NCBI GenBank assembly: GCA_014237395.1
Contig: JABZFP010000029.1
Location: 50,537-114,536 of the forward strand
DNA: 64,000 nt
Reading direction: 5' to 3'
Origin: Desulfobacteraceae bacterium
GTDB taxonomy: Bacteria; Desulfobacterota; Desulfobacteria; Desulfobacterales; UBA5852
Shown one piece after another: positions 2,644 through 56,962 of this stretch (position 1 is the first letter of the stretch; every line of letters starts with the position of its first letter). Made by a program: the position numbers and the translations under genes. The notes under the pieces are model-generated. The model was not told the DNA's origin and ran no database searches. It saw only the letters and a list, made by a program, of their open reading frames with translations.

Positions 2644-2908
2644 TGAAACCTCCAGAATTTTAAGAATTATCAGCAGTCTTACGCCACGTAACCCATAGCG
2701 GATGTCCCTGTTGATGTCAATGCTCACCGGGTTGACCGGGTTCTTCAATAGCATGCTGATCGCACATGCCGTTGGGTCATGGGGGCGGCCATACCCATAG
2801 AAGTTGCGGGTTGGATTCTTGTGCGATTTGTATTACACCGGCCTTCGGAAAACAGCAGATCAGCGTATCGTATTCACAACAGGGCCGTTTGGGCTCGCAG
2901 GAGAATGA

Positions 2909-3733
2909 ATGGCGAAAGGAAACACGCGGCGTGCTCGCCGTGAATTTTTCGGTTCCGCATCGATTCAACAACAGCTGCGCGCTGTCGGGCTTGATTCCTT
3001 TGAAGCCCTTTGGACACACGATGCCACCTGGGTGGAAGAACCCAACTTTAGACGTCAGGGCTGGAGCGGTGTCTGCCGCATCGAACTGGACAATGCGACG
3101 TCTTCTCCCATCGTGATGTATCTCAAGCGCCAGGAAAATCACGGCTACCGAAGTCTGGCAAACCCTTTTCGATACCAGCCGACAGCCTACCGTGAATATA
3201 AACGCCTTATGGCCATGCAAGCCGCCGGCATAACCTTACCGGATATCCTCTATTACGGCGAACGCCACAGCGGAAAAAACTTACAAGCCATCCTGATGAC
3301 GCGGGAAATCCCCTCCAGTATCCCACTGGATGATTATCTTGGTCTAACGCCGGAACGTGATCCCGCTGAAGTCGACCGGGTCATCCAGGACACGGCAACC
3401 TTGATCGCCAAGCTGCATCGCCACCACTTCCAGCACTGTGCGTTGTATGGTAAGCATGTATTGATCAGCGGCGTTGAAACGGCCGCAGGGGCCGGCAGCC
3501 GACTGGTGCCTTACCTGATCGATGTCGAAAAATCCCGTTGGCGGCTTTCCCGCATGGCGATCGCCGTGAGAGATCTGAACCAGTTCCAGCGCCGTGCGCC
3601 CTGGACGACGACGCAGTGGGACACGTTCCTGGTGCATTATATCGCTGCCTGTCAGATGGAACAGTTTAAACCTGTTTTGTCATGGCTCATTCAAAAAAAA
3701 GCCGCAAGCAAGCAGGCCCGACACCAGCTATAA
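2909..3733 (+). CDS. lipopolysaccharide kinase (InaA/Kdo/WaaP family) protein, paralog 1
   Basis: 274 aa with RRQGWSGVCRIEL, MYLKRQENH, YREYKRL and LYGKHVLI...YLIDVEKSR, which are typical of the LPS-kinase family. Paralog of 8432-9313. Confidence 0.8.
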   Translation: MAKGNTRRARREFFGSASIQQQLRAVGLDSFEALWTHDATWVEEPNFRRQGWSGVCRIELDNATSSPIVMYLKRQENHGYRSLANPFRYQPTAYREYKRLMAMQAAGITLPDILYYGERHSGKNLQAILMTREIPSSIPLDDYLGLTPERDPAEVDRVIQDTATLIAKLHRHHFQHCALYGKHVLISGVETAAGAGSRLVPYLIDVEKSRWRLSRMAIAVRDLNQFQRRAPWTTTQWDTFLVHYIAACQMEQFKPVLSWLIQKKAASKQARHQL

Positions 3734-23018: not shown

Positions 23019-23120
23019 TGTCCGATGGTGACCCGGAGCTTTATTTCCCGTTAAACTGTCTTATGATGTTTGAAAGTATGCGGTTACGCTAATCAAGAAG
23101 CACCTTTATTAATTCTATTT

Positions 23121-23226
23121 GACGGCTTCGAAAATTGTTCAAGATCAAGGCGTGCAAGTTGTGAGGAGCGAGGCGTGCTCAATGCACGCCGCAGTGACGA
23201 AGAGCGCCGCGCAACGCAGATATTGG
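23121..23226. repeat. structured palindromic repeat, copy R2 (left arm + core; interrupted by IS)
   Basis: Left arm GACGGCTTCGAAAATTG (23121-23137). Core about 80% identical to R4. Central hairpin GGCGTGC-tcaat-GCACGCC (23172-23190). Core ends at gatattgg (23226). Confidence 0.75.
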
Positions 23227-23239
23227 ACTTTTTCCTATG

Positions 23240-23437
23240 TGGTCCCATGTCAAGGAGAAAGCGTTAAGCAAACAAATGCCCTTTTCCTATCCGCATCTAA
23301 AAATGCATAGTACCGATTCGGTACACAAAAAAGCGAGCCGCCATTTACGAAGCGCCCTCAAGGGGCCAAAAGTCCGCCGCGGCCATCGCCCTGAGACTGT
23401 TTGCTTGTTTCTCCTTAACGACTATTTCCAATCAGAG
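23240..23437 (-). ncRNA. candidate bridge/seek guide RNA of the IS110-family element
   Basis: Long-range pairing of 23252-23260 with 23408-23416 and of 23268-23274 with 23398-23404. Internal hairpin GTACCG-att-CGGTAC (23310-23324). Encloses cttttcctat (23281-23290), which copies the IS end tttttcctat (23229-23238), and atttacgaagc (23343-23353), which is identical to the flank at 24589-24599. Strand is not established. Confidence 0.4.
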
Positions 23438-24517
23438 TTATGCTGCCATGCCACGCACTTGATAACTTCGTTGCTGCGTGCTCAATCGCCACAAAATGAT
23501 GGCCAAATCCCTCGCCAACGCCACGATTACTTTTTGCGGCACAGCGGTTTTAGCGACGATCCGTTGATACTTCCCCCCCGCCAATTCATCTTTGCGACGC
23601 CAACACCAGGCGGCCTCAACCAGCAAACTGCGCAAACGTTTCTGTCCCACGGGCCTCAATTTTGCCCGCCCCTTGCTCTCTCCGCTTTGCCGCACCATGG
23701 GGGCAAGACCCAGATAGCTGGCCACCTGATTGGCCGACTTAAAGCGCAAGGGGTCAAACAACTCCAGCAGGAAGGTCGCCGCGGTAATCGGACCAACCCC
23801 AGGCGCTGTTTGAAGACACTCAAAAGCTTTTTCATGGTCGCCCTGACGACATACCGCTCTGAGCTGTTTTTCGATATGTTGTCTTTCTTTGAGCAAAAAA
23901 GCCAACTCACGCACCAGGCTTCTAAGCGTATCTTTGGCCGAGGTTTGCAACGGCAGCTTCCAAAGCGCTTTGACCCCCTTGTCGCTCCAGTGCGCCAGAC
24001 CGGCCGGTTCCTTTACGCCAAGATACAGCAAGTGCGAACGGATCCTCTGTTTGACCGTACGAATCGAATCAACCAGGTCGTGACGACGACGCACCAGGCT
24101 GCGTTGCGCCTCTTGGGCCCTGCTGGGAACAGCGATCCCCTTGAGGATCCCGTTGGCAGAATAACGGGCCAGTCGTATGCAATCGAGTCGATCGGTCTTG
24201 GCACCTTGCGTCACCGGTCGGGGTACACGGTTGGGGGCTACCACCAACACCTTAATATCCCCCTCTTCAAGCAGACGGGCCAACTCAAATCCGGTCGGTC
24301 CGGCTTCGTAGGCTACCTGCACGATCTGAGGGCTAAATTTTTGCAACTGCTTAACCACCAACGCGGGGTCGGCCGGACTGACAAAAGTCTGCAAAAACCC
24401 GCTAATTCCATGGAAGGCAACATGATAGCTGTTTTTATGAACATCGATACCAACGTGAAAAAGATCACTTTGGGTTTCCAAAACTTCGCTCAACCGTGCT
24501 AAATTAACTTTTGCCAT
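23438..24517 (-). CDS. IS110-family transposase (DEDD/RuvC-like N-domain + Transposase_20 C-domain)
   Basis: 359 aa with HVGIDVHKNSY near the N-terminus and LQTAPGVGPITAATFLLEL...FKSANQVASYLGLAPMVRQSGES in the C-terminal half. Confidence 0.92.
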   Translation of the reverse strand: MAKVNLARLSEVLETQSDLFHVGIDVHKNSYHVAFHGISGFLQTFVSPADPALVVKQLQKFSPQIVQVAYEAGPTGFELARLLEEGDIKVLVVAPNRVPRPVTQGAKTDRLDCIRLARYSANGILKGIAVPSRAQEAQRSLVRRRHDLVDSIRTVKQRIRSHLLYLGVKEPAGLAHWSDKGVKALWKLPLQTSAKDTLRSLVRELAFLLKERQHIEKQLRAVCRQGDHEKAFECLQTAPGVGPITAATFLLELFDPLRFKSANQVASYLGLAPMVRQSGESKGRAKLRPVGQKRLRSLLVEAAWCWRRKDELAGGKYQRIVAKTAVPQKVIVALARDLAIILWRLSTQQRSYQVRGMAA

Positions 24518-24589
24518 GTTGGTTCCTCCTTTGCTGAATAAGTTCGTGGCAACGTCCTTATTCTAACATCGTTTGGGACCAACATGGTA

Positions 24590-24603
24590 TTTACGAAGCC
24601 GTC
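24590..24603. repeat. displaced right arm of repeat R2
   Basis: The 15-nt right arm aTTTACGAAGCCGTC (24589-24603; its first nt is counted with the IS/flank junction) pairs 14/15 with the reverse complement of the first 15 nt of the left arm (23121-23135). It closely resembles the R5 right arm TTTTACGAAACCGTC. Confidence 0.7.
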
Positions 24604-27743: not shown

Positions 27744-29114
27744 ATGTCGGAAACCAACCTGAACCGAATTCTGGCCCCCCGGGAAAACCTTGCCCGTATT
27801 CTCGATAACCTCAAAGAAGGGGTTATTGCGCATGACCTGAACCGCCGGATCTTCTTCTTCAATCACCAGGCCGAACAGATTACCGGCTTCAGCCGGGAAG
27901 AAATTCTGGGCCGCGACTGCCACGACGCCTTCGGCATCCCTTTTTGCGGCGAGCGCTGCTCCTTCTGCGACCCCGGCGAGTTGGCCCCCGGGAACCTCGA
28001 CAAAAAAGAATACACCCTCAATATCACCACCAAAACCTGTGAAACCCGCCGTATCGATATGAGCGTCACCATGATGCGGGATGCGTCCGGCAACGATGTC
28101 GGCGTCCTGGCCCTGTTTCGTGACATAACGGACGAACTGCGGCTGCAACTGCAATCCGGCAACCTGGATCGCTTTTCCAATATCATCGGGCGGGATGCCA
28201 AGATGCTGCAGGTGTTTCAGCAGATCAGCGACGTCGCCGCCTATGACTACCCGGTTCATATTTTTGGGGAAACCGGCACCGGCAAAGAGTTGGTGGCCAA
28301 TGCCATTCACAATGAAAGCCACCGGGCCGGCACCCCCTTCGTCCCGATCAATTGCGGGGCCCTGCCGGAGGGGTTGATCGAAAGCGAGCTGTTCGGCCAT
28401 GTCAAAGGGGCCTTTACCGGCGCCATCCGCGATAAGAAAGGCCGCTTCGAACTGGCCGACCGCGGCACCATCTTTCTGGACGAAGTGGCGGAGCTGTCCA
28501 AACCCATGCAGGTCAAACTGCTACGTTTTCTACAGGAGGGAACCTTAGAGCGGGTGGGGGGCGAGAAGACGATCTCCGTCAACGTCAAGGTGATCAGCGC
28601 CACCAACAAGGATTTGAAGGAAGAAGTGCGGCACGGCGCGTTTCGGGAGGATCTGTTCTATCGCCTGAGCGTCATCCCGATCTACATCCCGACCCTGAGG
28701 GAACGCCGCACCGATATCCCCCTGCTGGTCAACCATTTCATGCACGAAGCGGCGCTCAAGCACAACCAGGCGTCACTTCGTATGTCAAAAGAGGCCATGT
28801 CCCTGCTGATGGACTACGCCTGGCCCGGCAATGTCCGGGAACTCCAGAATGCCATCCAGTTTGCCCTGGTAAAATCAAGCGGCCGTATGATCACCATCGA
28901 CGATCTGCCCATGGAGATTCGGGCGATGCGCCGCGAAACCCTGCGCCGCGGCCCCACACGCAAGCTGAACCAAGCCACAGTGCGGCGCGCGCTGGCGCAG
29001 ACGGCCGGCAACAAATCCAAAGCGGCCCGCCTGTTGGGTGTAGGCCGCGCCACCCTGTATCGTTTTTTGAATGACCATCCCGACCTGGCCGACCAGGAAC
29101 AAGCCACGCCCTAA
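27744..29114 (+). CDS. sigma-54-dependent transcriptional activator (PAS with Cys4 motif, AAA+, Fis HTH)
   Basis: PAS domain with C59-x8-C-x3-C-x2-C. GETGTGKE Walker A, GAFTGA loop, ELQNAI, and C-terminal AARLLGVGRATLYRFL. Confidence 0.92.
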   Translation: MSETNLNRILAPRENLARILDNLKEGVIAHDLNRRIFFFNHQAEQITGFSREEILGRDCHDAFGIPFCGERCSFCDPGELAPGNLDKKEYTLNITTKTCETRRIDMSVTMMRDASGNDVGVLALFRDITDELRLQLQSGNLDRFSNIIGRDAKMLQVFQQISDVAAYDYPVHIFGETGTGKELVANAIHNESHRAGTPFVPINCGALPEGLIESELFGHVKGAFTGAIRDKKGRFELADRGTIFLDEVAELSKPMQVKLLRFLQEGTLERVGGEKTISVNVKVISATNKDLKEEVRHGAFREDLFYRLSVIPIYIPTLRERRTDIPLLVNHFMHEAALKHNQASLRMSKEAMSLLMDYAWPGNVRELQNAIQFALVKSSGRMITIDDLPMEIRAMRRETLRRGPTRKLNQATVRRALAQTAGNKSKAARLLGVGRATLYRFLNDHPDLADQEQATP

Positions 29115-33632: not shown

Positions 33633-33773
33633 GAAGTTGATTGCACGCGTTTCATCGTGGTTCAGCGCAAGGCGCGCGGTTGGCTGCAAGCGGAGCATAC
33701 GCGGGTATGTGAGCATTGCGGCCGGCCGTGCAACACCGTGCTGTGCCGCGAGGTGACGCGTGCAATCAACTTC
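33633..33773. repeat. structured palindromic repeat, copy R3
   Basis: Perfect 18-bp arms GAAGTTGATTGCACGCGT (33633-33650) / ACGCGTGCAATCAACTTC (33756-33773). Core has gcaaggcgcgc, hairpin GCATAC-gcgg-GTATGT (33695-33710) and gtgcaacacc. The right arm ends on the first nt of the nqrF stop codon. Confidence 0.75.
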
Positions 33774-35663: not shown

Positions 35664-36296
35664 TTAGCGGTTCAAAATGGCGTGCTCGAGCCAGACAAAC
35701 AGGCCGATCACGATAAAGGCGCCCGGTGCCAGCAGCATCAGGCCCATGTCCATATACCCCATGTCATACAACGCCTGGGGCACCACCGGAAACCCCAGGA
35801 TCTTGCCCGACCCCAGCAGCTCCCGGAAAAACGAGACGCCCACCAGGATCGAGCCATACCCGATGCCGTTGGCCATGCCGTCCACAAACGATTTCAAAGG
35901 GGGGTTCGACATGGCAAAGGTTTCAGCGCGCCCCATGACGATGCAGTTGGTGATGATCAGCCCCACGAAAACCGACAACTGCTTGCTGATATTGTACATG
36001 AAAGCTTTCAGCACCTCGTCCGCGATGATGACCAGGGTGGCGATCACGGCCACTTCCACGATAATGCGGATATTGCGGGGAATCATCTTGCGCATCAGCG
36101 AAATGATCAGATTCGAGCAGGCCACCACGGCCGTGAGCGCCAGCGCCATGACGATGGCCGTGTTCATCTGTACGGTTACCGCCAGGGAGGAGCAAATGCC
36201 CAGCACCTGTTTGGAGATGGGGTTGTTCTGCCAGAGCGCATCGGAAACCGTGCGGTAGGTTTCCGTACGCGTGATCTTTACGAGGGCGGTTGACAT
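35664..36296 (-). CDS. nqrD: Na+-translocating NADH:quinone oxidoreductase subunit D
   Basis: 210 aa with [17 protein letters not shown] and the NqrD/RnfE family pattern. Confidence 0.9.
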
Positions 36297-37015
36297 ACGA
36301 GTGCGTTCTCCGGAAGCTTGAGCATGCCCTGGTTGCGAAAATGGACGGAAACCGGCTCATAGGTCTGCAGAATGTCTTCCAAGCCCTGGCTCAGGAACTT
36401 GCCGGTCATGGTGGCACCGCTGATGCCGTCGACGTAGTTCGGCTTGAGATCCTGCCGAACGGCATCCTCCACGGCGCCCTTGGCAATTTTGATGGACACG
36501 AAATTCCCTTCGGCATCGATGATCTGCTTCCCCACGAAATTGCGCTGAAACCATTGATTTTCGATTTCGCCGCCCAGACCGGGGGTTTCGGAGTGCTGGT
36601 AAACGGAAAAGCCGGTTATCGTGCTGCCATCCGTATCCAGGGCCAGATAGCCGTAAATGCGACCCCACAGGCCGCGGCTGTCCACCGGGATGATATAGGC
36701 TTTTACTTGCCCGTCGGCCCGGTAGAGGTAGAGCGGCAGGACCTTCTTGGGTGCCGCCTTGGCGGACAGGACCTGCCCTTCGTCGTCGATAGAAATGCAT
36801 TGAATCGAGGATTGATACAGCGCTTTGATCGCGTCGGCCGGATAAGAGCGACCCGATTCCACGGCCCCCACGGCCTGCAGGATATTCTTCTGCCGATCGA
36901 CCAGGGCATTTTCCCGCTGAAACGCCTTGAGGCCGGTGGCCGCCATCGTCAGCAGCAAGCTGCAGACCAGGCAAAGGCCCGTGGCAAACAGGATGGTTTT
37001 AACGCCGTCAGACAT
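36278..37015 (-). CDS. nqrC: Na+-translocating NADH:quinone oxidoreductase subunit C
   Basis: 245 aa with an N-terminal TM anchor and the FMN attachment motif DGISGATMT. Confidence 0.9.
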
Positions 37016-37042
37016 GGTGTCCCCTGTTGATGGAAACGTGCC

Positions 37043-37166
37043 GACGACGTTGTGAACCGTTCAAGGTCAAGGCGTGCAAGCGCCAAGGAGTGAGGCGTAC
37101 ACCAGGTACGCCGCAGCGACGCGAAGCGCCGCACAACGCCGAGATTGGGCGGTTCACAACGTCGTC
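37043..37166. repeat. structured palindromic repeat, copy R4 (inside nqr operon)
   Basis: Perfect 17-bp arms GACGACGTTGTGAACCG (37043-37059) / CGGTTCACAACGTCGTC (37150-37166). Central hairpin GGCGTAC-accag-GTACGCC (37094-37112). Fills the nqrB-nqrC gap. Confidence 0.8.
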
Positions 37167-38349
37167 AGACATTGGACATCCTTCGCCGCATGCGCAGCTG
37201 CATCTCGATGTGATCCAGCAACGGGTTGAAAAGGTTCATGAAAAGAATCGCCAGACCCACCCCCTCGGGAAAAGCGGGGTTGAAGACCCGGATCAGAACG
37301 GTCAGCATGCCGCACATGAACCCGTATATCCATTTGACGTGCTTCATGTGAGTGGCCGAAACCGGATCGGTGGTCATATAAACAATGCCGAACGCCGATC
37401 CCCCCATGATCAGATGATAAAACGGATTGAGGGAAAGAAAAGGGGCGGAATCCGGCCCGGCGATGAGATTCAGGAGCGCACCGGTGCAGAGCACCCCTAA
37501 GACGCCCCCCAGGATAATGCGATAACTGGCAATGCCCAGCAGGATGAGGAACAGGCCGCCCAGGACACACAGGAGGGTCGACGTGCCGCCCACGCTGCCC
37601 GGATAAAGACCGCCAAAAAGCTTGAGGGCGCCGTAGCCCACCGAATGCAGGGTTTCTTCCACGGCCTGGCCGGCCGGGGTGGACGCGGAAACGGACAAGG
37701 GCGTTGCGGCCGTGAAGGTATCCACCACGGTGGTGCGCGCGCCGCTCAGGACGGTCCAGACCTGGTCACCGGAAAGACTGACCGGGTAGGCGAAATAAAG
37801 AAAGGCCCGGCCGGTCAGGGCCGGGTTCAAGAAGTTGCGCCCGGTGCCGCCAAAGACTTCCTTACCGATCACGATGCCGAAGGAAATCCCCAAGGCCACC
37901 TGCCACAGCGGGGTTCCGGGAGGCAGTGTCAATGGGAACAGCATGCAGGAAACGAAAAGCCCCTCGCTGATTTCGTGCTTGCGGACAACGGCAAACAGAA
38001 TTTCCCAGGCGAACCCCACCACGTAAGTTACGATCACCATGGGCAGCACGAGCCAGATACCGCTCCAGATCACCGGCAGCAAGTCGGTGGAGAGCCCCGA
38101 GGCAAGCCGCGACTGGAGGCCCGAATTATAGATGCCGAAACACAGGTGCGGAATCAGCGCCACGATCACCAGTGCCATGAAGCGCTTCACGTCCAGGCTG
38201 TCCCGTACGTGGGGAAGCCCCTCGGACCGCTCGACGGGCCCGAAAAAAACGGTTTCGATGGACTCGTAGAACGCATACAGCTTGTGATAGGGTCCCCCCT
38301 CCTCAAACCGGGGCCTCAGATGATGGAATAGGGTGCGGATCGCTTTCAT
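37165..38349 (-). CDS. nqrB: Na+-translocating NADH:quinone oxidoreductase subunit B
   Basis: 394-aa polytopic protein of the NqrB/RnfD family, with DTFTAATPLS at the flavinylation position. Its stop TGA (37167-37165) overlaps the right arm of repeat R4. Confidence 0.9.
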   Translation of the reverse strand: MKAIRTLFHHLRPRFEEGGPYHKLYAFYESIETVFFGPVERSEGLPHVRDSLDVKRFMALVIVALIPHLCFGIYNSGLQSRLASGLSTDLLPVIWSGIWLVLPMVIVTYVVGFAWEILFAVVRKHEISEGLFVSCMLFPLTLPPGTPLWQVALGISFGIVIGKEVFGGTGRNFLNPALTGRAFLYFAYPVSLSGDQVWTVLSGARTTVVDTFTAATPLSVSASTPAGQAVEETLHSVGYGALKLFGGLYPGSVGGTSTLLCVLGGLFLILLGIASYRIILGGVLGVLCTGALLNLIAGPDSAPFLSLNPFYHLIMGGSAFGIVYMTTDPVSATHMKHVKWIYGFMCGMLTVLIRVFNPAFPEGVGLAILFMNLFNPLLDHIEMQLRMRRRMSNV

Positions 38350-46707: not shown

Positions 46708-47886
46708 CTAATGCATCGCTGCTTCGGTCGCCTGTTTCCAGAACGGCGACATGCTCCGCAGGCGTTCGATGATCGGCGGCATCTTATCCACGATATAATC
46801 GACCTCTTCCCTGGTGGTGTAATGGCTCAGGCTGTAGCGGATGGAACCGTGGGCCGCGGTAAAGGGCACCCCCATGGCGCGCAGCACATGGGAGGGCTCC
46901 AGGGATCCTGAGGTGCAAGCCGACCCGGAAGAAGCGCAAATCCCGTATTCGTTCATCAGCAGCAGTATCGCTTCGCCCTCCACGTATTCAAACGCAATGC
47001 TGGTGGTGTTCGGCAGACGCTCCGCCTGGCCGCCGTTCGCCATGGAACGGGGCACGGCCTGAAGCAGGGCCTGCTCCAATGTGTCACGCAGCTGCCGCAC
47101 ACGGGTTCCGACATCTTCCAGATTTTCGCCGGCCAGCGCGCAGGCGCGGCCCATCCCGACGATGCCGGGCACATTTTCGGTGCCGGCCCGGCGTCCGCCT
47201 TCCTGGTGACCCCCCACCACCATGGGCTTGAACTTGGTGCCCTTGCGGATGTAGAGCGCACCGATACCTTTCGGCCCGTGGAATTTATGGGCGGACATGG
47301 ACAGCAGGTCGACCCCGTTTTGGGAGACATCAATCGGGATCTTGCCCACCGTCTGCACCGCATCCGTGTGGAAAAGGATGCCGCGCGCGCGGACCTCCCG
47401 GGACAGGTCGTCGATGGGATTGATCACGCCGGTTTCGTTGTTGGCCCACATGAGGCTGACAATGGCCGTATCATCGCTTAGGCTCTCCAAGAGGGCTGTC
47501 TGTTCCAAACGGCCCTCACCGTCAACCGGGACAAACGTCACCCGGTATCCGTTTTTTTGGTACCGTTCGAACAAGGTTTTGATGGCCGGATGCTCCACCC
47601 GGGAGGTGACGATATGACGTTTGTCCGGGTTGGACTGCAAGGCCGCATGGATGGCCGTCGCATCGCTTTCCGTGCCACCGCTGGTAAAAAGAATCTCTTC
47701 GGGCCGGGCCCCGATCAGATCGGCCACCTGGGTGCGGGCCCGGCGGATATCGACGACCAGTCCCCCACCAAAACTGTGCATGCTGGAGGCATTGCCATAG
47801 CGCTCGGTAAAATAGGGCAGCATGGCCTCCACCACTTCGGGGGCAACTTTGGTCGTGGCATTGTTGTCGACGTAGATCGTCTTCAT
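46708..47886 (-). CDS. nifS: cysteine desulfurase NifS
   Basis: IYVDNNATT...FTSGGTESD...SAHKFHGPKG...SSGSACTS. Confidence 0.93.
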   Translation of the reverse strand: MKTIYVDNNATTKVAPEVVEAMLPYFTERYGNASSMHSFGGGLVVDIRRARTQVADLIGARPEEILFTSGGTESDATAIHAALQSNPDKRHIVTSRVEHPAIKTLFERYQKNGYRVTFVPVDGEGRLEQTALLESLSDDTAIVSLMWANNETGVINPIDDLSREVRARGILFHTDAVQTVGKIPIDVSQNGVDLLSMSAHKFHGPKGIGALYIRKGTKFKPMVVGGHQEGGRRAGTENVPGIVGMGRACALAGENLEDVGTRVRQLRDTLEQALLQAVPRSMANGGQAERLPNTTSIAFEYVEGEAILLLMNEYGICASSGSACTSGSLEPSHVLRAMGVPFTAAHGSIRYSLSHYTTREEVDYIVDKMPPIIERLRSMSPFWKQATEAAMH

Positions 47887-51646: not shown

Positions 51647-53008
51647 ATGCGGATGGACATTAGCAGTTTCTGGGAAACTATCGTCAATACATTGCATGAC
51701 GGACTTCTAGTCGTCGATGCCCGGGGAACCATTCTGAATATGAACCCGGCCGCTGAAAAACTGACCGGTTATTCCGCCGAAGAACTGGTGGGTCGCAACT
51801 GCCGCGTGCTGAACTGCTCGGGGTGCCAGATTTATGGCCGGGGCGCCGGCAAGGAGTGGTGCAGCCTCTATGTCCGCAACCGCATCCGGGCCAAAAAATG
51901 CACCATCACCGACAAAAACGGCCGGGCCCTGTTCGTCATGAAAAATGCCTCGGTGTTGAAAGACGATCACGGTAACGTGGTCGGCGCCATCGAAACCCTG
52001 ACGGACATCTCCGAAATTGTTCGCCAGCAGCAGGAAATCATGTCGCTGCGCCAGACCTGTCGCCTGGATGACGGGTTTCACGGCATTATCGGCCACGCGC
52101 CGTCCATGCAGCGCCTGTTCGAATTGATCGACAATGTCGCCCAGAGCGACGCGCCGGTGCTGATCCACGGCCCCAGCGGCACCGGCAAAGAACTGTCGGC
52201 GCTTGCCGTGCACGAGGCCGGACCGCGTAAAACCAAACCGTTTATCAAAGTCAACTGCGCCGCCCTCAACGAAAATCTGCTGGAAAGTGAACTCTTCGGC
52301 CATGTCAAGGGCGCCTATACCGGTGCCGACCGGGCGCGCATCGGGCGATTCGAAGCGGCCCACGGGGGTACCATTTTTCTGGACGAAATCGGTGATATTC
52401 CTTTGGCCACCCAGGTCAAACTCCTGCGGGTGCTGGAAGAAAAGGAGATCGAACGGGTGGGCGATCACCACCCCATCGCCGTCGATGTTCGCATCATATC
52501 CGCCACCAACAAAAACCTGGAAAAAAGCATCGCCGAAGGCCTGTTTCGCGAAGATCTCTATTTCCGGATCAATGTCTTCCCCCTGACCATGCCCGCCCTG
52601 CAGGACCGCATGGAAGATATCCCGTTGCTGGTGCAGGGATTCATCACCCAGAACAACCAGCGCAGCGGAAAAACGATCGAAGGTCTGTCCCCCGAAGCCA
52701 TGGACGCCCTGCTAAGCTATACCTGGCCTGGCAATGTCCGCGAACTGCGCAACACAATCGAGTATGCCTTCGTCCTGTGCCCCGGCGGTTGGATCGGTCC
52801 GGTGCATTTGCCGCAACGTATTGTTCGAGGAACCCCGGCAACCGCCTCCCGCGATATCCCCGCCGGACCGGAGCGGGAGGCCCTGCTGAATGCCCTGCGA
52901 CTGGCCAATGGCAACCAGTCCGAAGCCGCCCGGCATTTAGGCGTCAGCCGGGTCACGGTCTGGAAGCGGATCAAAAAGCACGGTATTGATCTGCACCGTG
53001 ATCTTTAA
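51647..53008 (+). CDS. sigma-54-dependent transcriptional activator (PAS with Cys4 motif, AAA+, Fis HTH)
   Basis: PAS domain with C52-x4-C-x2-C-x11-[21 protein letters not shown], and [16 protein letters not shown]. Confidence 0.92.
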
Positions 53009-56740: not shown

Positions 56741-56802
56741 TGTGCATCCAGAAATGTCCAATTTTCCCGATATCGGCGCTACGCGTAAAAAGCCCTGTAG
56801 CA

Positions 56803-56962
56803 GACGGTTTCGTAAAAGGTTCGAGATACGGCTTGCGAATCCCGTGGAAAGAGGCGTACTTTTCGTACGCCGCAGTGACGAGGGATTCGTGTAACGCGGA
56901 TATTTATCCCTTTTAAGGGACGGTGTCCGCCTTTGGCGGATCGGGCGTTTTACGAAACCGTC
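56803..56962. repeat. structured palindromic repeat, copy R5 (extended)
   Basis: Perfect 15-bp arms GACGGTTTCGTAAAA (56803-56817) / TTTTACGAAACCGTC (56948-56962). Central hairpin GGCGTAC-ttttc-GTACGCC (56853-56871). Carries an extra ~45-nt module with two small hairpins before the right arm. Confidence 0.8.

Follow-up and report, generated by a model that had tools for sequence, protein, structure and literature searches.

A ~150-nt palindromic repeat family, probably a bacterial MITE, with one copy between nqrB and nqrC in a Desulfobacteraceae bacterium

In the 64-kb stretch of Desulfobacteraceae DNA analyzed here (the window), nqrB (37165-38349, 394 aa) and nqrC (36278-37015, 245 aa), both assigned by Pfam, lie on the minus strand and are separated by 149 nt; the remaining nqr junctions measure 3, -19, 11 and 50 nt. 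The gap is occupied by a palindromic repeat, R4, whose long hairpin of inner left arm, core and right arm spans 37043-37166 on the plus strand. A first-pass annotation of this DNA had let R4 fill the whole gap, which holds only once a 27-nt 5′ extension (37016-37042, plus strand) is added to the repeat. R4 is a 124-nt imperfect palindrome with exactly complementary 17-nt ends and an MFE of -70.3 kcal/mol, compared with -42.5 in shuffles (z -8).

A covariance model trained on 83 family members was used to score the window copies and finds five of them, all on the plus strand, as the annotation had stated, with R1 marginal only. R4 is matched at 37038-37175 (123 bits), R2 at 23116-23253 (110 bits), R5 at 56798-56934 (80 bits), R3 at 33638-33772 (34 bits, E 1.6e-5) and R1, a weak and diverged copy with arms GATCGCCGA/TCGGCGATC, at 302-412 (19.6 bits, E 0.03). 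The copies at 23121, 33633 and 56803 were first recovered by repeat finding and motif searches. Co-orientation was considered relative to the replication strand; GC skew is weakly negative across the whole window and gene orientation is mixed. All copies fold with a stability far above that of shuffles (z -6 to -11), R3 reaching an MFE of -97.9 kcal/mol (z -11). R3 occupies 33633-33773 and abuts the nqrF stop codon, and R5 occupies 56783-56962, with an outer-left motif GCGTAAAAAGCC at 56783-56794 and the hairpin at 56803-56962. The left part of R2 (left arm, core and first half of the right arm, ending in GGACTTTTT) lies at 23121-23233, and the sequence of its right-arm remainder, TTTACGAAGCCGTC, at 24590-24603. 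A common plan with a conserved core, as first described, is seen in R2, R4 and R5 and fails in R1 and R3, a diverged subfamily from which the GCCGCAGYGACG core is missing. Likewise, arms said to be exact complements are so in R4 (17/17), R3 (18/18) and R5 (15/15) and not in R2, where the right arm is displaced and 14/17 positions pair. The reported covariation of the central hairpin is upheld, with GGCGTAC/GTACGCC in R4 and R5 and GGCGTGC/GCACGCC in R2.

In R5, ~40 nt of nested extra mini-hairpins precede the right arm. The nested module, TCCGCC-loop-GGCGGA (56905-56945), also occurs in four other loci (L016, L020, L115 and L126), sometimes with a second one, CCCTTTTAAGGG, and it interrupts different copies at different places, in the manner of an even smaller mobile palindrome. 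Two further repeats were seen in the window. A ~75%-identical direct repeat (28274-28484 and 52177-52387) with GGCACCGGCAAAGA, taken as a Walker-A coding motif, resembles a pair of paralogous genes for ATPases or regulators and is unrelated to the element, and a 37-nt inverted repeat pair (47504-47651; 73% complementary, 74 nt apart) lies apparently within coding sequence.

NqrC homologues led to four related contigs, which allowed the nqrB-nqrC junction to be compared directly. The 149-nt gap is present in L124 (NqrC 96% identical to that of the window) and L123 (83%), and the two genes overlap by 8 nt in L121 (93%) and L122 (84%). The earlier proposal that R4 splits nqrB from nqrC is thereby confirmed, since L121 and L122 lack the insert. 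The 27-nt extension is part of this insert, being present in filled sites only and absent from the empty L121 and L122. The empty site reads CCAATGTCTGACGG|GGTAAAAACC, and the filled site, in nqr sense, reads CCA, ATGTCTGACG, the reverse-complemented element, GGCACGTTTCCATCAACAGGGGACACC, ATGTCTGACGG and CGTT, with ATGTCTGACG(G) duplicated at both junctions; a 10-nt direct repeat, CGTCAGACAT, was detected at the R4 flanks. In window coordinates, the 8-bp target-site duplication TCAGACAT lies on the plus strand at 37008-37015, where it contains the nqrC start (CAT, reverse complement of ATG), and at 37165-37172, where it contains the nqrB stop (TCA, reverse complement of TGA). It is exactly the ancestral stop/start overlap ATGTCTGA, and nqrB and nqrC therefore keep their full length in filled genomes. 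Insertion of R4 into this 8-nt overlap thus left both ORFs intact. It would uncouple nqrC from nqrB; AGGGGA, on the nqr-sense strand of the extension, precedes nqrC and could act as its new RBS. The R4 and L123 copies may stem from one insertion, followed by precise loss in L121 and L122, or from two independent ones, which are plausible because of the target preference described below. The only contigs found with the exact NqrC of the window are ~1.0-1.2 kb long, and the one read (L001) opens within the element, 100 nt ahead of nqrC, consistent with the element breaking short-read assemblies.

The window copies differ in their arms and have a core in common, which would fit a conserved core inserted repeatedly into existing local palindromes, such as terminator stems, with arm complementarity as a by-product. 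We find this explanation barely credible for the family, as the arms are homologous across more than 100 copies in many genomes. For R4, insertion into a pre-existing palindrome, an outcome that the first-pass annotation had named as damaging to its own proposal, is excluded, because no palindrome exists in CCAATGTCTGACGGGGTAAAAACC, the empty nqrB-nqrC site, and both arms arrive with the insert.

The family extends well beyond the window. A scan of a one-genome-per-species collection with the exact core GGCGTRC-N5-GYACGCCGCAGYGACG matched at least 119 stretches of DNA. Among the matches listed, nearly all belong to Thermodesulfobacteriota, namely Desulfobacterales (including the isolate Desulfosarcina cetonica), Syntrophales/Smithella and Geobacteraceae, with a few Nitrospirota and one Rokubacteriota. 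Several genomes and MAGs are multi-copy, CR_Bin_276 carrying copies on at least 10 contigs. An actinomycete core match was discarded as chance-like, since it reads as coding sequence and is not recognized by the model at E<=0.001. The family consensus is GACGGCTTCGTAAAAAGTCCGAnnTCAAGGCGCGCGAATCCnGAGGAATGAGGCGTACTTAnnGTACGCCGCAGTGACGAGGGATGnAGCGCAACGCAGAAnTCGGnCTTTTTACGAAGCCGTCA. No match to the window was obtained in Rfam release 15 at the gathering score; among 16 family loci, gathering thresholds returned only RNase P and PYLIS, both outside the elements, and with the cutoff relaxed to E<=5, a chance-level lncRNA match was all that the best family copy produced, and R4 produced none. These results agree with the initial failure to recognize a named family. 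A full-text literature search for core and arm strings yielded no relevant paper, and a keyword search for MITEs in Desulfobacterales nothing relevant.

Unusual copies were also seen. In L085 (4100-4720; MAG CAJXSL01, an uncultured Desulfobacteraceae), four element copies of a subfamily near R4 (loop ACCAG) are arranged head to tail with a ~166-bp period, and only the last has a proper right arm; this array looks like a tandem amplification of the element. In a copy in L087 (1653-1826), 36 nt of the central hairpin region are duplicated internally (GTACTTATTGTACGCCGCAG...). In L016, L080 and L117, the left half is replaced at one point, just 5′ of GAGGAATGA, by ...TTACGGCGAACATTCATGTTCCATCC; this sequence probably marks one end of another site-specific insertion that has the core as its target.

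The ends of the element are conserved. The TIR-like motif GAYGGnTTCGTAAAAAGTC is found in more than 100 copies from other genomes, and a third, outer copy of it lies at a fixed distance, ~27 nt 5′ of the left arm. There the TCGTAAAAAG motif is present in 52 of 106 copies, compared with 9 of 106 in a control region, and the outer-left end has the consensus GATGAACTCGTAAAAAGTC. The 27-nt extension of R4 sits at this very place and represents a degenerate outer left end. The stretch TCGTAAAAAGTC is common to the outer left end, GAYGAACTCGTAAAAAGTC, and to the right end when reverse-complemented, GACGGnTTCGTAAAAAGTC. The outermost 5-7 nt of the two ends differ (GATGAAC vs CGGnT), the exact tips being ambiguous by 1-2 nt; because the tips differ, the TIR is only partly recognizable and consists mainly of the subterminal TCGTAAAAAGTC. 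The end motif may resemble the inverted repeats of IS903 or ISL3, a likeness on which the interpretation below does not draw. The mobile unit measures ~150 nt (in R4, a 149-nt insert plus the 8-nt duplication), which is too short for ORFs and leaves the elements without coding capacity.

Based on these features, we interpret the repeats as a ~150-nt bacterial MITE and hence a non-autonomous DNA transposon, with a probability of about 80%; the family is common among sulfate reducers and their relatives and is apparently undescribed. The copies are small and non-coding, dispersed in many places, flanked by duplications and polymorphic between filled and empty sites. The first-pass annotation had described the reverse of a MITE, with a conserved interior and variable ends. 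This description does not survive the conserved end motif and the 8-bp duplications; the impression arose because the sample was small, its copies, above all R4, R3 and R1, were old and diverged, and the core had served as the search anchor, so that part of the core conservation is due to ascertainment. The unit would run from the outer left end through a ~9-nt spacer to a second, direct copy of the motif (the left arm), followed by a core of ~90 nt and an inverted motif copy (the right arm), and the inner left arm would pair with the right end to give the long rod. A transposase acting in trans, as yet a candidate enzyme, would make 8-bp staggered cuts. Against this interpretation, no autonomous partner with these ends was found when the 119 loci were searched for inverted end motifs 0.7-3.5 kb apart and the window for end motifs, both of which led to MITE copies only; as the search covered the window and these loci, the absence of an autonomous parent or cognate transposase is weak evidence.

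Target-site duplications extend to the wider family. The 8 nt directly 5′ of the outer left tip are found again at the right junction in 17 of 43 copies when one mismatch is allowed (3.5% of shuffled pairs) and as an exact repeat in 8 of the 43 (0.5% of shuffled pairs). The offset is constant, directly after ...CCG(T), some duplications are longer (13 and 20 nt), and the duplication frequently starts with TCA. No recognizable duplication was found at four of the five window copies. Insertion appears to prefer sites where the duplication starts with TCA, and for this reason the element would usually come to lie directly after the TGA stop of an opposite-strand gene.

Gene contexts, taken from a crude longest-ORF caller rather than a gene finder and hence approximate in number, follow this pattern. 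Divergent intergenic regions are avoided (4 of 88 copies), and the right end tends to meet the stop codon of an opposite-strand gene. The terminal TCA forms the exact end of an opposite-strand ORF of at least 100 codons in 30 of 120 copies, and in 10 further copies such an ORF stops at a TTA inside the arm, within CTTTTTACG; the arm would close two of the three incoming reading frames. The stops of nqrB (TGA within the R4 end) and nqrF (TAG abutting R3) conform to the same pattern. On the left side only a weak equivalent exists (~10 of 104 copies). In L093, a copy (3275-3412, minus strand) begins 2 nt past the 3′ end of the RNase P RNA (2876-3273, Rfam 332 bits), so insertions also abut RNA genes.

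The fold of the element is strongly supported by covariation. RNAalifold yields a rod of 40 pairs with compensatory double changes in 30, and the terminal 20-bp helix has compensatory changes in 19 pairs. Paired cells amount to 94.0% compared with 81.0% in shuffled alignments (0/500 shuffles), and double-change cells to 416 compared with 102 in the control. The covariation score is 0.408 against 0.161 when shuffled (0/500) and 0.05-0.09 with partners slid, so the compensatory covariation first claimed for these repeats withstands a statistical check. Such covariation may also be read as fold selection, the repeats then being a structured RNA or single-stranded DNA under plus-strand selection, in the form of a mobile small-RNA gene or a cis-acting RNA module; we consider this unlikely. 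Of 83 copies, 77 are more stable when folded as the window plus strand than as its complement; the mean difference is -8.5 kcal/mol under RNA parameters and -4.0 under DNA parameters, and the unpaired motifs TCAAGGC, GAGGAATGA, GCAGTGACGA and AACGCAG are conserved across phyla. Neither the conserved unpaired core motifs nor the one-strand folding bias is predicted for a passive MITE. However, core conservation is inflated by the use of the core as anchor, and R1 and R3 show core decay. A mobile, strand-specific structured nucleic acid, acting as a folded single-stranded DNA intermediate of transposition or as a small-RNA/antisense module on the 3′ ends of abutted convergent genes, is similarly improbable. 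If it were nonetheless true, the internal loops and the G.U/G.T pairs of the plus strand would reflect function, and function would drive the co-evolution of the arms.

On the plus strand, a tally of per-pair counts gives a ratio of G.U to A.C of ~4-5 to 1, which would favor selection on an RNA. This excess is treated with caution and not taken as proof of RNA-level selection, since it is carried by ~9 high-frequency positions, which may have been inherited from a few master copies, and among rare states G.U occurs about as often as A.C. Relative to the abutting gene, the better-folding strand is antisense in tandem arrangement in 41 copies, sense in tandem in 22 and convergent in 21. It is usually antisense because the right end meets an opposite-strand stop codon, and this bias argues against selection on the 3′ UTR of the abutting gene as the source of the strand asymmetry. 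A simple promoter and terminator scan called no site in or beside the copies, which, together with the lack of an Rfam match, also weighs against an RNA gene or module. By visual impression, the sequence of a consensus copy resembles a bidirectional terminator, with an A-tract, stem and T-tract.

Comparison of copies at fixed loci suggests how the arms have changed. R4 and its L124 counterpart are nearly identical, and the L123 copy at the same site is ~80% identical, with consensus-like arms that contain one T.G and one A.A on the plus strand. The R4 arms depart from the consensus at 6 of 17 positions, all six of them compensated. Being so unlike the family ends, they must have changed in a coordinated way, and in-situ compensatory arm evolution is therefore real. 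The R3 counterpart in L122 is ~93% identical and has a single arm substitution, which gives a T.G. R3 and its flanks keep ~93% identity between lineages in which NqrC identity is down to 84%, a higher conservation than expected that would favor selection on the fold. Downstream of nqrF, degenerate R3-type remnants with GCAATGCTCACAT are seen in L121 (13246-13400) and L123 (7262-7560, two remnants); this 3′ region has either been hit repeatedly or holds very old copies.

The window copies would then be old and immobile elements whose arms have drifted from the consensus with complementarity retained, either through selection on the hairpin or through quasipalindrome correction by template switching. 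The two explanations offered in the first-pass annotation, selection on a single-strand fold and templating of one arm by the other, are both viable for these in-situ changes. Template switching in quasipalindromes, by which one arm is copied from the other, is a documented replication mechanism (PMC7202029) and would likewise keep drifting arms perfectly complementary; the experimental demonstration comes from E. coli reporters, and its action on the present elements is inferred only. The arms of R3-R5 form perfect Watson-Crick duplexes with no wobble, which exceeds what selection on an RNA requires and slightly favors template switching over hairpin selection.

The displaced right arm of R2, at 24587-24603, is explained by a 1,356-bp insertion sequence of IS110/IS1111 type inside this arm (23234-24589, minus strand). 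Its transposase (23438-24517, minus strand) carries the Pfam domains DEDD_Tnp_IS110 (PF01548, 4e-16) and Transposase_20 (PF02371, 7e-25), and these domains together with site-specific insertion place the element in the IS110/IS1111 family. Subterminal inverted repeats (ATGTGGTCCCA / TGGGACCAACAT) are present, and a ~200-nt non-coding region lies 3′ of the transposase gene (23234-23437). Transposase copies with 99% identity occur on at least 24 contigs, and a 68%-identical relative on at least 24 further contigs. The insertion sequence is found at the identical arm position in all 16 loci read, in at least 8 genomic contexts, with the junction ...GGACTTTTT|IS|TTTACGAA... (more fully, ...GGACTTTTT|CCTATGTGGTCCC...GGGACCAACATGGTA|TTTACGAAnCCGTC); in 2 of the 16, the insertion is in the left arm and the element reversed. 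The insertion sequence may have adopted the MITE arm as its specific target, with GGACTTTTTACGAA as the putative target stretch, because the arm is a high-copy conserved sequence. Targeting of REP sequences is a known behavior of IS110/IS1111 elements (PMC1525189, PMC11187229, PMC11208160). As in REP/BIME/REPIN targets (PMC1525189; bridge/seek RNA work in PMC11208160 and PMC11187229), the landing site is high-copy and palindromic, but here it is a MITE end motif and not a RAYT-associated REP. Two of the loci with this insertion sequence, L136 and L139, are apparent chimeras, probably assembly joins across repeats.

REPs are short hairpins (20-40 nt) that carry a conserved 5′ tetranucleotide, are accompanied by a RAYT gene and generate no target-site duplication. 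The present repeats share with them a palindromic structure, an intergenic location, a high copy number and a strand-asymmetric fold; all five window copies are co-oriented, and IS110-family elements target REPs (PMC1525189, PMC11187229). Spread of a REP/REPIN-type repeat by a RAYT (HUH, Y1) transposase through a single-stranded intermediate is nonetheless very unlikely, given the 8-bp flanking duplications, which REP/RAYT systems do not make, and a unit of ~150 nt with three end-motif copies in place of a 20-40-nt hairpin or doublet. There is no conserved GTAG-type 5′ tetranucleotide, and no RAYT-like gene was noticed in a non-targeted, non-exhaustive survey.

Among known bacterial repeats, the architecture of this MITE family is closest to YPAL/RU-2 of Yersinia, followed by ERIC and Correia elements. 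YPAL/RU-2 are 168-bp palindromic mobile repeats (summarized in PMC2229807), and both families have a size of ~150-170 bp, are not A+T-rich, lack a terminal TA, and carry stem-forming inverted repeats that are partly internal. Flanking duplications, filled and empty sites and an intergenic location are also common to both. However, they show no sequence similarity and differ in host phylum; YPAL duplications are reported to range from 3 to 26 bp (PMC2229807), whereas those of this family are mostly 8 bp with a few longer, and a TCA (TGA stop) preference at one junction distinguishes the present family. ERIC/IRU and Correia (NEMIS) elements (PMC2229807, PMC3184786) are likewise ~100-160-bp imperfect palindromes with no ORF, occur in tens to hundreds of copies with presence/absence polymorphism, and lie after genes or inside operons, where co-transcription as long hairpins is possible. 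In contrast to the present family, they duplicate TA rather than 8 bp and have different termini, and no IHF site or promoter is recorded for our repeats. The three-copy end-motif architecture and a distribution over several phyla further set this family apart.

A MITE is a known kind of element, and what is noteworthy here is the insertion into a gene overlap rescued by the duplication, the compensatory arms, and the use of an arm as an IS110 target. The repeats would add a large, apparently undescribed MITE family that spans several phyla, mainly within Thermodesulfobacteriota, and repeats of this kind break metagenome assemblies. In anaerobes, the arm offers an IS110/IS1111-type (RNA-guided) recombinase a natural target present in many copies, which could help studies of target choice. 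Arms that diverge at a fixed locus with every change compensated make a convenient natural test case for selection versus template-switch correction. The nqr insertion illustrates cleanly that a transposon can enter a stop/start overlap and, through its 8-bp duplication, spare both genes, and R4 would thereby turn translational coupling into an intercistronic hairpin within an essential respiratory operon.
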